DNA from: a candidate division Kazan bacterium GW2011_GWA1_50_15
GTDB taxonomy: Bacteria; Patescibacteriota; Kazan-3B-28
Direction of reading: 5' to 3'
Length of the DNA: 64,000 bases
Assembly: GCA_001029795.1 (NCBI GenBank)
Contig: CP011216.1
Coordinates: 211,398 to 275,397 of the forward strand
Positions within the stretch are counted from its first letter, which is position 1; the number at the start of each line of letters is the position of its first letter. The position numbers and the translations under genes were made by a program. The notes below the pieces were generated by a model. The model did no database searches and had not been told where the DNA came from. It saw only the letters and a list, made by a program, of their open reading frames with translations. Positions 22,036 through 62,130 of the stretch are shown here, one piece after another.

Positions 22036-22190
22036 GTCATCCTGAACTTGATTCAGGATCCATTCCCCTCTCCTCTTTCGTCATTCCAGCGGAGGTGGGA
22101 ATCCAGGCCGGATAAGAATAATTTTTCTTTTTCTGTCTGGACCCCGGGTCAAGCCCGGGATGACAGAAAGATGTGGTCGGGATGACGAAG
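22036..22190. repeat. Cluster of GC-rich palindromic repeat units (GTCATCCTGAACTTGATTCAGGATCC; CGTCATTCCAGCGGAGGTGGGAATCC; CTGGACCCCGGGTCAAGCCCGGGATGAC; GGGATGACGAAG)
   Basis: Each unit is an inverted repeat with GTCATYCC / GGRATGAC termini. Related copies are at 29134..29224, 41268..41352, 54479..54557 and 62105..62130. Confidence 0.55.
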
Positions 22191-22421
22191 AAGGAAATGG
22201 TTTGCAACTTGTCACTTATGACCTTTAACTTTTCACTGGTTCAGCGATAGGTGGGAGGGTCTTGCTCGTGAATGACTGTTCTACCCTCCTTGAACAGCGC
22301 TTTGCGAGCAAAACTCTCCCTGCTTATTCTACCGGTGTCCCATCCCATTAAATCTCACCTTCTGGGATTGGTACAAAAGCCGAATGGCTGATACCGGGAT
22401 TCTGGGGAGAAAATTGCAAGA

Positions 22422-22447
22422 GGAAGGCATCGTCCTTCCTTTTGCTT
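22422..22447 (+). terminator. Plus-strand rho-independent terminator (GGAAGGcatcgtCCTTCC + TTTTGCTT) ending the ORF-free region
   Basis: Stem-loop followed by a T-tract on the plus strand only. Overlaps the pth stop codon. Confidence 0.5.
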
Positions 22448-22970
22448 ATAAAAGCATCTCGATTACCTGGGGTAAGACCGCTTTGACGGCGGTCATTTCT
22501 TTTGCGGTGAACTGGCGCAGGACGAATTCGGCTGTGTCGATATTAGGCGAACCAATTCCGATCTTGAGGCGAGAGAGGTTGGTAGTTTGTAGCTGGTCGA
22601 TGACGGACTGCATCCCCTTGTGTCCGGCGCTACTCCCCTTCTCCCGCAGGCGCAGTTCCCCCAAGGGTAGGTCGACATCGTCATAGACCACTGTCAGGTT
22701 CTTCTGGGGGATATTGAAATGCTTTAACAGCCGCGTCACCACGCTGCCCGAATTATTCATCAGTTTAGTGGGCTTCGCAAGGATTATCTTGTCAGCCCGG
22801 ACGATGCTAGCGCCGAGCTTTTTGTCCTCCCGCCACTTGAGTTTTAATTCCTTAGCCAAAAAATCCACCGCCAGATAGCCGGCGTTGTGTCGAGTGCGTT
22901 CATATTGTTTGCCCGGGTTGCCCAGGCCGACTATCAGTTTAGTCATCGTCTTCGGTTTCTGGACGGTCAT
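22446..22970 (-). CDS. pth: Peptidyl-tRNA hydrolase
   Basis: LIVGLGNPGKQYERTRHNAGY motif. The likely true start is the internal Met MTKLIVGLG at 22946. Confidence 0.85.
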   Translation of the reverse strand: MTVQKPKTMTKLIVGLGNPGKQYERTRHNAGYLAVDFLAKELKLKWREDKKLGASIVRADKIILAKPTKLMNNSGSVVTRLLKHFNIPQKNLTVVYDDVDLPLGELRLREKGSSAGHKGMQSVIDQLQTTNLSRLKIGIGSPNIDTAEFVLRQFTAKEMTAVKAVLPQVIEMLL

Positions 22971-23142
22971 CCTTCAGTGCCTCGAGGAGTTCCTTGGCCT
23001 CCCTCGAGATCTCAACCGTATCTTCATGGTAATGACGGTCAGGGGTGACCTCTTCTACCCTCTCAACCTTCTTATTCTTCTCTTTGCGATAGAAAAAAGG
23101 AGGAACCCCCTCGCCGGGGTTAATTTTTCCAATCTCGTTCAT
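22939..23142 (-). CDS. Small acidic hypothetical protein (67 aa)
   Basis: ORF only. Overlaps the annotated pth start; acidic C-terminus. Confidence 0.3.
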   Translation of the reverse strand: MNEIGKINPGEGVPPFFYRKEKNKKVERVEEVTPDRHYHEDTVEISREAKELLEALKDDRPETEDDD

Positions 23143-59719: not shown

Positions 59720-59818
59720 CCTAAAATTGATTCAATAAGTAGAGCCGCGGACGTGAGATATTGGACCGCTTTTCACCTGCTTCATTATAGCCAAAATCTT
59801 CCTCCTTAACAAGAGATT

Positions 59819-62077
59819 CTATTCGTCACGCAAGCGAGCTTTATGCCGCTCTAGGAGCATGTTTTTTATCACTTCGTTCACCTTGTCCCGATCCTCTTTT
59901 GTGAGGGTCCGAACATTAGAGCGAAGTTGGACATGGAAAGCCGCGCTCCGGCCCCGATCGGGCGAGCGGAAGATGTCAAAAAGTTCAACTGCGTCCACCA
60001 ACGGATCAGCGGCCCAAATATCTTTGATCAAGTCAGCGATCCGGACCCGGTCGGGAATGAAAAACGCCATATCCATTTTTACAACTGGGTATTTGGGTAG
60101 CGGCCGGTACTCCCGCGTCCATCGCACTTGCGGTGCAATGGCGCTCAAATCCAGAGCAAAAGTGGCCTCGCTCCCCCACCGCCTCAACTCGCCGACCATC
60201 TCCTGACCCCGCACCAACCTAAGACCGTCAACTCCAGCGACCTCGCGCCAATCCGTTCCAGTGAGACCCAGTTCGCCCAGTAGTGTATCGGCAATGCCTC
60301 GGGCCACGCGATAGGCGTCCGGCTCACTGATGCGCAGCACTAGCTGCTGACGCTCCTCCGGGAAGACGGTTTTGGCTTTAGCGAATACTGTACCAACTTC
60401 AAAAATACGAAAATCAGACCGACCGGCTTCTAGCTGCCGCAGACCTTCAGTGAGGTCAGTTTTGAGGTGAGTGGCGACGCTGCTAAGCGGATTATCCAGC
60501 TCGACTGCGCTCTCGCCACCAACGTCAAAGGGGTGAAGATAAACCTCGAACAGACCAAGGCGGGCCAGGGTCTCTCTGACGCGAGTCAACACTCGGCGCA
60601 GGTCGGGTTGGGTCGGCAGGGCCAGCGGCAAAGCCGGCATGACTAGCGGGACCTGGTCGGTGCCGTAAATTCTTAAGATCTCTTCAGCAATGTCGGCCAT
60701 CCCGTCAATATCGGAGCGGTCGTGGGGAACGGCGATGGACAGTCTGTCACCATTAACTGTGGTCGAAAGGTCCAGGCGATTTAAAATATCTGCCATTTCA
60801 CCGGTGGGAATAATGATACCCAGCAGGCGATTGATCGCCTCGGCGCTAACTTCTAATAAGCGACTGGCAGGCGGGAGCTTCTGATGCACATCGATAGTAT
60901 CTTTGCCGACTTGAGAATCGGGGCAAAGTTGTTGAATTAACTTAATTACCCGGCGCAGAGCGAGTTCTGGTAGAAAAACATCCAGTCCTCGCTCAAACCG
61001 GTTGCTAGCATCGGTGCGAAGACCCAGTCGGCGGGAAGTGTTGCGAATAGATACAAAGTCAAAGTTAGCCACCTCGACGGCGACAGCGGTGGTGCTCTCC
61101 CCCACCCCGCTAGTTTCTCCGCCAATCACGCCGGCAATCGCGAGCGGACCAGACGAGTCGGCGATAACCAAGGTTTGGACGTCAAGCGGACGAGTGACCC
61201 CGTCCAAGCATGCAAGAGTCTCCCCTACTTTGGCGGAACGAACGATGATAGACCGATCTTTTACTTTATTTAGATCAAACGCATGGATGGGCTGACCGGT
61301 CTCCAACATGACATAGTTAGCTGCATCGACAATGTTATTGATTGGTCGCAGACCAACTGCGGTCAGCGTTTGCTGGAGCCACTCAGGTGAAGGCCCAACT
61401 TGGATATTTTGGATAATGCGAGCCATATAGCGTGGGCAAGCAACAGGATCTTTGACCTCCACCCGCAGTTCCGCTTCGGTAGCCGATGCGCCCCTAACTC
61501 CAGCGATAGCCGGCGGCTGCCAGTCCTGCCGCAATACTGCAGCGATCTCCCGAGCCAGCGATCGGTAGCTAATGTAGTCTGGCCGATTAGCCAAAATCTT
61601 GAGATCCAAGATGCTGTCGCCGTCATCGCCGAGTAGCTCACTTAAGGATGTCCCGGGCTGACGCTTTGTATCCAACAACCTAATACCTGAGGCATCGCCA
61701 GTTAAGCCTAGCTCGGCGCTACTGCATAGCATCCCATCTGAGGGTTCGCCGCGGATAACGGCCTCACGAATGATCGTACCGTCAGGTAACTTTGCTCCCA
61801 CTAGGGCCACCGGCACATGCTGGCCTACCGCAATATTGTGAGCCCCGCAGACGATACCCAAGACCCGCCCGCCAACATCAACTTGGGTTAAGGAAAGTTT
61901 GTCGGCATTAGGATGGGGTTTGATCGCTAGGATCTCTCCCACTACAAAGTTGGCCCACTTGCCGTGCGTCTCAACTGATTCGACCTCAGTAATATGCAGA
62001 TAGATCAAATCACTCAGCTCCTGCGGGGAAAGCTTGAAGTTCAGCCAAGACTTTAAAAGTTGGTAAGAAAACTTCAT
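59819..62077 (-). CDS. pheT: Phenylalanyl-tRNA synthetase beta subunit
   Basis: N-terminal tRNA-binding OB (MKFSYQLLKSWL...), B3/B4 and FDX-ACB-like C-terminus. 752 aa. Confidence 0.9.
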   Translation of the reverse strand: MKFSYQLLKSWLNFKLSPQELSDLIYLHITEVESVETHGKWANFVVGEILAIKPHPNADKLSLTQVDVGGRVLGIVCGAHNIAVGQHVPVALVGAKLPDGTIIREAVIRGEPSDGMLCSSAELGLTGDASGIRLLDTKRQPGTSLSELLGDDGDSILDLKILANRPDYISYRSLAREIAAVLRQDWQPPAIAGVRGASATEAELRVEVKDPVACPRYMARIIQNIQVGPSPEWLQQTLTAVGLRPINNIVDAANYVMLETGQPIHAFDLNKVKDRSIIVRSAKVGETLACLDGVTRPLDVQTLVIADSSGPLAIAGVIGGETSGVGESTTAVAVEVANFDFVSIRNTSRRLGLRTDASNRFERGLDVFLPELALRRVIKLIQQLCPDSQVGKDTIDVHQKLPPASRLLEVSAEAINRLLGIIIPTGEMADILNRLDLSTTVNGDRLSIAVPHDRSDIDGMADIAEEILRIYGTDQVPLVMPALPLALPTQPDLRRVLTRVRETLARLGLFEVYLHPFDVGGESAVELDNPLSSVATHLKTDLTEGLRQLEAGRSDFRIFEVGTVFAKAKTVFPEERQQLVLRISEPDAYRVARGIADTLLGELGLTGTDWREVAGVDGLRLVRGQEMVGELRRWGSEATFALDLSAIAPQVRWTREYRPLPKYPVVKMDMAFFIPDRVRIADLIKDIWAADPLVDAVELFDIFRSPDRGRSAAFHVQLRSNVRTLTKEDRDKVNEVIKNMLLERHKARLRDE

Positions 62078-62104
62078 TCTTGTGTCGTTCCTATATTCTC
62101 TTTT

Positions 62105-62130
62105 GTCATTCCCGCGGAGGCCGGAATGAC
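62105..62130. repeat. 26-bp palindromic repeat unit GTCATTCCCGCGGAGGCCGGAATGAC between pheT and pheS
   Basis: Inverted ends GTCATTCC/GGAATGAC. Homologous to 22079..22104 (CGTCATTCCAGCGGAGGTGGGAATCC). Confidence 0.55.

Follow-up and report, generated by a model that had tools for sequence, protein, structure and literature searches.

The window analysed here, a stretch of 64,000 nt from the candidate division Kazan bacterium GW2011_GWA1_50_15 (contig CP011216.1, positions 211,398 to 275,397), is a chromosomal housekeeping region that carries a dispersed family of short, tagged hairpins at its gene junctions. The region has a GC content of ~51% and includes mfd, pth, der, pgi, glyA, pyrG, gyrB, pheST, several GT4 glycosyltransferase genes and three tRNA genes; Rifle groundwater assemblies and the NCBI metagenome-assembled genome GCA_003484385.1 contain this DNA with an identity of 99.95-100%. 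The nearest named relative is a metagenome-assembled genome classed as 'candidate division Kazan', whose Der protein is 89% identical, and another relative bears the label Saccharibacteria. A first-pass annotation had described GC-rich, intergenic palindromes at five loci and had likened them to repetitive extragenic palindromes (REPs) or miniature inverted-repeat transposable elements (MITEs). The described sequences are present at every one of these loci, and a sixth locus, at 46010-46069, had been overlooked. Spread over six sites, the window has 12 full units and a further 2-3 that are degenerate. When ~8 kb on each side of the window is included (~80 kb), there are seven loci, the seventh being a pair located 4.6 kb past the window end. 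The features are listed below, with scores and E values from a covariance model of the unit and z values from folding as single-stranded DNA (ssDNA), in which all elements are stable (z -2.2 to -5.6).

22035..22062, + strand: unit TGTC-ATCCTGAA-CTTGA-TTCAGGAT-CCA, outer left unit of the pth-mfd cluster; 40.2 bits, E 9e-8; z -2.2
22079..22165, unstranded: 87-nt inverted pair with tags outside, units 22079-22106 (+) and 22137-22165 (-), spacer CCAG..AGAAAAAGAAAAAT..CTGG; z -2.7
22170..22187, - strand: truncated unit with tag and 5' arm only (GTCATCCCGACC), the degenerate right partner of 22035-22062; GGRATGAC at 22179
29134..29222, unstranded: 89-nt inverted pair between pgi and a 105-aa open reading frame (ORF), units 29134-29162 (+), E 4.5e-8, and 29193-29222 (-), E 1.5e-3; z -3.1
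41269..41352, unstranded: inverted pair, decayed left unit GACATCGGGGATCCAG at 41269-41284 and right unit 41311-41352 (-) with a nested hairpin in its loop, E ~1; z -3.6
46010..46069, unstranded: 60-nt, almost spacerless inverted pair at the junction of two GT4 genes, units 46010-46038 (+) and 46041-46069 (-); z -4.3
54481..54553, unstranded: inverted pair between rpmA and pyrG, whose 3' ends converge, units 54481-54509 (+) and 54513-54553 (-); z -5.6
62104..62131, unstranded: single hairpin tagged at both ends, GTCATTCCCGC-GGAG-GCCGGAATGAC, between pheS and pheT; model matches on both strands; z -3.4
13893..13935, unstranded: unit relic (ACAAGTTCAG...GAC) interrupted by the 16-nt palindrome TCCGCCAGCTGGCGGA; no covariance-model match; not functional-looking

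Structure and statistical support of the hairpin family

Each unit consists of a YGTC tag, an 8-bp stem opening with the pairs A-T/T-A, a loop of 4-6 nt and a CCA-like tail. The tag before the stem is CGTC, TGTC or AGTC in the window units, and GTC is invariant in all 23 units aligned; the first stem pair is AU in 23/23 units and the second is UA in 22/23. Loops of 4-6 nt are found in ten window units, while the remaining two (41311-41352 and 54513-54553) have loops of 16-18 nt with a nested hairpin, which in unit 54513-54553 contains the palindrome TCCGCCAACTGGCGGA. The tail is CCA in the units at 22035, 22079, 22137, 29134, 46010, 46041 and 41311 and CTC or CTA in those at 54481, 54513 and 29193. 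The description of the family as GC-rich holds for part of the units, but several stems are AT-rich (ATCCTGAA/TTCAGGAT), with a unit GC content of 0.34-0.41.

Inverted pairs with tags outside are present at five of the six window loci, with ~2-31 nt between the paired units and a pair length of 58-89 nt. The cluster at 22035-22187 is formed by four units, namely an inner pair flanked by one outer unit that is intact and another that is truncated. Two copies had been called near-identical in opposite orientation, and 22139-22164 on the - strand is indeed identical to 29135-29160 on the + strand at 25/26 positions, with similarity running over 68 nt at 82%. Moreover, spacer homology is common to the pairs 29134-29222, 22079-22165 and 41269-41352; since these three pairs are homologous through their spacers, the repeated entity is the pair and not the hairpin alone.

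The distance from the preceding stop codon is 3-22 nt for all copies, and the genes around them form dense runs that are co-directional or convergent. The claim that all copies are intergenic stands for the five loci that were listed; the overlooked pair at 46010-46069 would be in frame inside the N-terminus of the downstream glycosyltransferase in the longer of two possible gene calls; alternatively, its ATGAC terminus supplies the ATG of that gene. For the window itself, no intragenic copy is certain. On the - strand at 46010-46093, the in-frame reading starts at an ATG that overlaps the upstream stop codon, and the alternative start, MTVGRPKIAIVHDFL, comes from the ATGAC of the element; there is a 26-codon difference between the gene calls of ENA and NCBI at this position.

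A degenerate 26-mer derived from the units (GTCATYCYGRRYTTRWYYCRGRATCC) has 5 matches in the window at up to 3 mismatches and 0 in 100 dinucleotide shuffles. When GTCAT with a hairpin after it was searched for, the window had 12 matches versus 2.5 in shuffles, and the real matches are far stronger than those in shuffles, with fully paired stems of 8 bp, loops of 5 nt and a CCA tail. With the covariance model, 10 full units were found at E <= 0.0015 and the two long-loop units at E ~1-2, with no other match in the window; unit 29193-29222 was recovered even though it was outside the training set. Strict units occur at a density of 1.4 per 10 kb in the window, 1.7 in close relatives and 0.06-0.09 in unrelated control loci (2.3 Mb), representing a ~20-fold enrichment over the controls. 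Among 23 distinct units from the window and relatives, the 8-bp helix is 97.7% paired, a percentage inflated by the fact that this set was picked partly for being hairpins, and compensatory double changes were found at 5 of the 8 pairs; the observed pairing and covariation values were reached by 0/500 shuffles. Exact copies of three window units are found in unrelated viral or prophage contigs with a GC content of 39-73%, most of them after C and before CCA. In addition, 22035/22036 is the exact point at which independent assemblies break, as would be predicted if the sequence is repeated.

Next to the pth-mfd cluster, a near-consensus extended promoter (TTGACA-17-(TG)-TACAAT, 21980-22008, + strand) is aimed into the cluster, antisense to pth, and its hexamers are kept in L110, a relative (L-numbers here and below denote loci of the compared genomes, and glyA was used to retrieve relatives). 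This sequence suggests that the cluster, or a small RNA, may be transcribed.

Ssn nuclease genes and turnover of copies in relatives

In relatives, the units bracket an ORF of 95 aa with a GIY-YIG domain (PF01541, E 3e-15), and the flanks of this ORF match the Neisseria NTS consensus at 28/28 positions. Proteins of this type, named Ssn (cd10448), are site-specific ssDNA endonucleases that bind NTS (CGTCATTCCCGCGMAVGCGGGAATCYRG) or the hairpins called Ssn-related motifs (SRM), as single strands only and in one orientation (Chenal et al. 2025, Nat Commun 16:2388). Work in Neisseria and Wolbachia has shown that Ssn cuts a few nt 5' of the tag, and the genes are arranged as NTS-ssnA-NTS; the protein does not bind RNA, and in N. 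meningitidis it lowers the integration of NTS-bearing transforming ssDNA (Chenal et al. 2025). For the bracketed ORF, ~2,500 homologues with 60-83% identity were found in Patescibacteria, Alphaproteobacteria, Smithella, Bipolaricaulota and Chloroflexota, many of them on very short contigs; between phyla, the identity of Ssn is 60-70%. Residues Y6, Y17 and E64, which are the positions mutated in N. meningitidis (Nm) SsnA (Chenal et al. 2025), are invariant in an alignment of 25 Ssn sequences that includes those of the candidate-phyla relatives. The nearest Ssn proteins that were traced (P0003, P0004, P0006, P0007, P0008, P0009 and P0074) all come from other organisms or samples, and neither PDB nor NCBIfam yielded a match to the Ssn protein of a relative.

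Outward-tagged units flank ssn on both sides in 12/34 loci and on at least one side in 20/34, against a background of 0.034 per 200 nt. This replicates the published flanking rates of 42% and 71% (Chenal et al. 2025); the association between ssn and the hairpins has already been published and is not new here. The arrangement SRM-ssn-SRM, or an ssn gene bracketed by units, is found in L195, L196, L306, L307 and L319, and also in other phyla. In L190 (3090-3590), the closest glyA relative, a different GIY-YIG ORF adjoins a tRNA-Leu that is split or duplicated; this ORF may belong to a distinct mobile GIY-YIG element that targets the tRNA.

Orthologous sites show that the units associate with ssn in this clade and that copies turn over between related genomes. 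The junction of glyA and tRNA-Leu is empty in the window and in L191, L192 and L199, carries a pair of 87-88 nt in L193 and L194, and carries two units around ssn in L195 and L196. Between alr and pyrG, the genes overlap in the window, so that the site is empty, while an 87-nt pair is present in L191 and another pair in L194. Where a glycosyltransferase gene meets wecG, the window has an empty junction and L191 and L195 have a filled one; where two glycosyltransferase genes meet, L191 is empty, the window has a pair of 60 nt and L195 has one of 93 nt. Single units are also found in frame in essential genes of relatives, namely in gltX, encoding GluRS, of L191 (18420-18493, ..RHSREGGNPD..) and in gyrB of L195 (2650-2720, ..VIPAEAGIQ..), and the window orthologues of both genes are without them.

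At the pheS-pheT junction, SRM-ssn-SRM is present in L306, L307 and L319, whereas the window has only the 26-nt double-tagged hairpin. The left boundary, TTCTAA(A)ATC followed by GTCATTCC, is located after the pheS stop codon and is common to the window and the three ssn-bearing relatives. The hairpin at 62104-62131 is thus apparently the scar of a deletion that removed the interior of an SRM-ssn-SRM element, and ssn with it. In pairs that lack the gene, the spacers can be aligned to the leader (CCAGAMAAGAACAGAAAAAATG; CCAGAMAAGAACAGAAAAA-ATG) and trailer (TGTCTGGATTCC) of ssn, and some retain the ATG. Since these spacers correspond to the leader plus the trailer, the pairs look like internal-deletion derivatives of SRM-ssn-SRM, and the gene-less pairs can, on these alignments, be taken to derive from ssn elements.

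Half-units consisting of the tag and 5' arm (GTCATTCCCGC) are found 10-12 nt outside complete units in L307 (4945-5345), L195 (11234-11277) and L191 (17479-17524), and in L307 a matching right half, GGGAATGAC, is located on the other side of the element. This gives the impression of an SRM-ssn-SRM element having landed within an older hairpin.

Family identity, mobility and rival explanations

We infer that the window units are CGTC-tagged REPs, the same elements as NTS and SRM, and that the inverted pairs are MITE-like derivatives of ssn elements; judged from the sequence comparisons, we assign this reading a probability of roughly 0.8. The CGTC-tagged REPs, which include Neisseria dRS3 and Rickettsia RPE-4 and RPE-6, were defined by a CGTC/TGTC tag, an 8-9-bp stem starting with A-T/T-A, a 4-5-nt loop and a CCA tail (Di Nocera, De Gregorio & Rocco 2013, BMC Genomics 14:522). 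They mostly occur as HH dimers (tags outside), 1-100 bp apart, and intragenic copies occur; no REP-associated tyrosine transposase (RAYT) was flanked by CGTC units in any species, and no transposase was found nearby (Di Nocera et al. 2013). These repeats have since been renamed NTS/SRM, being the hairpins that Ssn, a GIY-YIG nuclease of ~94 aa, recognises as ssDNA (Chenal et al. 2025). The window units share the tag, the stem base, the 8-bp stem, the loop, the tail, the tags-outside pairs and the absence of a nearby transposase with the CGTC-tagged REPs. They differ from them in their host, a Kazan-3B-28/Patescibacteria-like groundwater organism outside the five phyla of Di Nocera et al. (2013), and in having many AT-rich stems, two nested-hairpin loops and one double-tagged single hairpin. 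As for NTS/SRM, the ssn flanks of the relatives are exactly the NTS consensus CGTCATTCCCGCGMAVGCGGGAATCYRG, and the SRM-ssn-SRM layout, the ~95-aa protein and residues Y6, Y17 and E64 agree as well, whereas no ssn lies in the ~80 kb examined and only an apparent scar is left at the ancestral ssn site. In the window, unit 22079-22106 (+) matches the Neisseria NTS consensus with 3 mismatches. The window repeats are a known family in a further host lineage, with variant stems.

Two other systems offer partial parallels. Ogata and co-workers are said to have described, in 2000, Rickettsia palindromic elements (RPEs) inserted in protein-coding genes. RPEs have been linked to CGTC-1/4 (Di Nocera et al. 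2013), and they resemble the present family in that single units are in frame in gyrB and gltX of relatives and that the window pair at 46010-46069 is in frame in one gene call; in the present family, either a single unit of ~28 nt or a pair of 60 nt is inserted, unlike the RPEs of 100-150 nt. The REPIN/RAYT system (Bertels & Rainey 2011; Nunvar 2010) likewise combines a hairpin-bracketed single-copy enzyme gene with many dispersed, gene-less inverted pairs, but its tag is GTAG instead of CGTC and its enzyme is an HUH Y1 transposase instead of a GIY-YIG hydrolase, and no RAYT was found in the ~80 kb here.

Under the proposed mechanism, the autonomous form would be SRM(+)-leader-ssn-trailer-SRM(-), ~350 nt in length and encoding a single-domain GIY-YIG nuclease of ~95 aa. 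The pairs of 58-89 nt would represent internal-deletion, MITE-like derivatives that kept both hairpins and remnants of the leader and trailer, and the 26-nt double-tagged hairpin at pheS-pheT would be an extreme deletion product. The window units would be, or would have been, recognition sites of a lineage-specific Ssn, and their spread and turnover could have occurred through an ssn-dependent process acting on ssDNA hairpins. This genome would have lost ssn from its ancestral pheS-pheT position, and its units are perhaps fossils unless another copy lies elsewhere; mRNA 3' ends would be affected only secondarily, if at all.

A number of observations weigh against the identification with SRM-ssn elements or against their mobility. 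A tblastn search with Ssn found no ssn in the window and ~8 kb on each side. The published SRM pattern, HGTCWYN(0-2)YYVSBRHN(0-5)WNVSBRGN(0-2)RNCYNB, is matched only by 22137-22165 and 29134-29162 (2 of ~12 units, with 0.3 expected); matches are few because many stems here are AT-rich or mismatched, and with only two units matched the pattern is unusable as a census tool here. The pth-mfd and pgi elements are present, in diverged form, in a relative at ~75% nucleotide identity, which indicates that some copies are old and may be inert. Target-site duplications, for which the first-pass annotation had proposed a check, are absent at glyA-tRNA-Leu, alr-pyrG, the junction of two glycosyltransferase genes and the glycosyltransferase-wecG junction when filled and empty sites are compared. 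The selection of the covariation set, mentioned above, counts on the same side. Finally, GIY-YIG enzymes hydrolyse DNA with no covalent intermediate, a chemistry that does not account for the insertion of copies.

Among the rival explanations, selection of the hairpins in place as host-functional RNA or DNA structures, i.e., as intrinsic terminators or stabilisers of mRNA 3' ends that were never mobile, would agree with the position of every copy 3-22 nt past a stop codon in tight gene runs and with the stable folds (z -2.2 to -5.6). Against the terminator reading, a T-run is missing from every unit; no unit was called terminator-like, and ordinary terminators were found elsewhere in the window. 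Identical 26-mers across genomes of 39-73% GC, units within the gyrB and gltX reading frames of relatives, the difference between empty and filled orthologous sites and the remnants of the ssn leader and trailer in the pairs also argue against a host function, as does the finding that Ssn does not bind RNA (Chenal et al. 2025); this explanation is considered unlikely, although the hairpins may act on transcripts in a secondary way. The chance origin of a few palindromes, which would be consistent with the small copy number in one window, can be practically discarded. The claim of a non-chance family was borne out by the shuffles (0 matches), by model E values down to 1e-8, by the ~20-fold enrichment over control loci, by identical units in other genomes and by the assembly breaks at exactly 22035/22036.

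Mobilisation by an enzyme other than Ssn represents the other group of rivals. The first-pass annotation had suggested an IS200/IS605 TnpA or RAYT partner, in which case a Y1 HUH transposase encoded elsewhere in the genome would recognise the hairpins and move the pairs. The inverted hairpin pairs with a short spacer do resemble REPINs, the architecture of a tagged hairpin parallels that of GTAG REPs, and the stretch inspected covers ~80 kb of the genome. However, the tag is YGTC and not GTAG, no Y1_Tnp or any other transposase was found in the Pfam gene tables of the window and ~8 kb on each side, in none of the species of Di Nocera et al. (2013) do CGTC units flank a RAYT, and the gene bracketed in five relatives and many other loci encodes a GIY-YIG protein of the Ssn family; a RAYT or TnpA partner is therefore very unlikely. 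Classical MITEs of an insertion sequence with a DDE-type transposase would have terminal inverted repeats that are recognised as double-stranded DNA and would create target-site duplications upon insertion. Although the termini GTCATYCC...GGRATGAC are inverted repeats and the elements are short, dispersed and polymorphic among relatives, every comparison of filled with empty sites lacks a duplication, the ~80 kb has no DDE transposase, each terminus is itself a covarying hairpin, and single units occur and insert alone; classical MITEs are thus extremely unlikely. The REP/MITE-like label itself is apt for a dispersed, structured family whose inverted pairs behave like miniature non-autonomous elements. 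Overall, the earlier interpretation is partly supported, in that the REP/MITE reading was right and the RAYT guess was wrong.

Taken as CGTC-tagged REPs/SRM, the window repeats extend the family to the ultra-small genomes of candidate phyla, in which mobile DNA is usually held to be scarce and in which many units escape the published search pattern. Patescibacteria are not mentioned by Chenal et al. (2025), and mobility was only hypothesised there; comparison within the present clade supplies evidence for it, as the same junction can be empty, filled by a pair or filled by ssn. Further evidence for mobility comes from spacers derived from the ssn leader and trailer, from the in-frame units in gyrB and gltX and from a scar located exactly where three relatives carry the gene. 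What these comparisons add on mobility and on the loss of the nuclease gene is useful, though incremental. Candidate-phyla bacteria probably rely on taking up DNA, and with Ssn restricting incoming ssDNA during transformation, the motifs could influence which DNA these cells recombine. A bolder possibility, to which we give somewhat less than an even chance, is that SRM-ssn-SRM is truly mobile, i.e., a hairpin-ended ssDNA transposon or homing unit that is driven by a GIY-YIG hydrolase rather than by an HUH or DDE enzyme, is or once was active in candidate-phyla bacteria, and sheds pairs and single hairpins, even in frame in essential genes. If so, the present genome would represent a lineage caught after loss of the nuclease, with fossil copies that can be dated.

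Arrays of 4-8 identical SRM units, on one strand and 150-900 nt apart, were observed on the viral or prophage contigs L043, L102 and L066. Head-to-tail arrangement has been reported to be rare for CGTC REPs.

Neighbouring palindromes, tracts and tRNA-like remnants

Two further hairpins had been proposed to share the core of the family, and both were rejected as members. The hairpin at 13911-13935 contains a separate 16-nt palindrome, TCCGCCAGCTGGCGGA, at 13913-13928, which is set in the unit relic and has no covariance-model match; the orthologous spacer of this relic in L110 carries an intact inverted pair. The terminator of tRNA-Glu (32250-32274) has only the 13-mer CGGGCTTGACCCG in common with the units, is without tag and tail and has no model match either.

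The palindrome of the relic belongs to a second family, TCCGCC-N4-GGCGGA, with copies at 6777-6792 (inside gatC), 13836-13851, 13913-13928 and 54523-54538, the last one being in the loop of unit 54513-54553. A broader pattern has 6 matches in the window versus 0.84 in shuffles, and similar TCCGCC...GGCGGA stems interrupt tRNA-Leu-like sequences 3' of tRNA-Leu in the window, L191 and L193. A-rich heptad tracts, (AAATKAC)n, are found at 6922-6942, 13130-13150, 25699-25743 and 30242-30275; these are intergenic and located by the starts of gatA, a 176-aa ORF, der and pgi, and a similar tract is present in L110 (13420-13450).

Rfam searches of the whole window at gathering thresholds identified the three tRNAs only. 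A duplicate of a tRNA 3' end is located at 32381-32413, 168 nt past tRNA-Glu, with another one in L110, and a tRNA-Leu-like 3' half with an inserted hairpin follows tRNA-Leu at ~50480-50625; these tRNA-like sequences could be integration remnants, or else tRNA genes that are split or contain an intron. No credible match came from scanning 23380-24340, which spans a gene-free gap of ~930 nt (23400-24333), with Rfam at permissive settings. Within this gap, the segment 23552-23638 is 79% identical to L110 5627-5713, which represents a different locus, the pgi-orf105 spacer adjoining an SRM unit.

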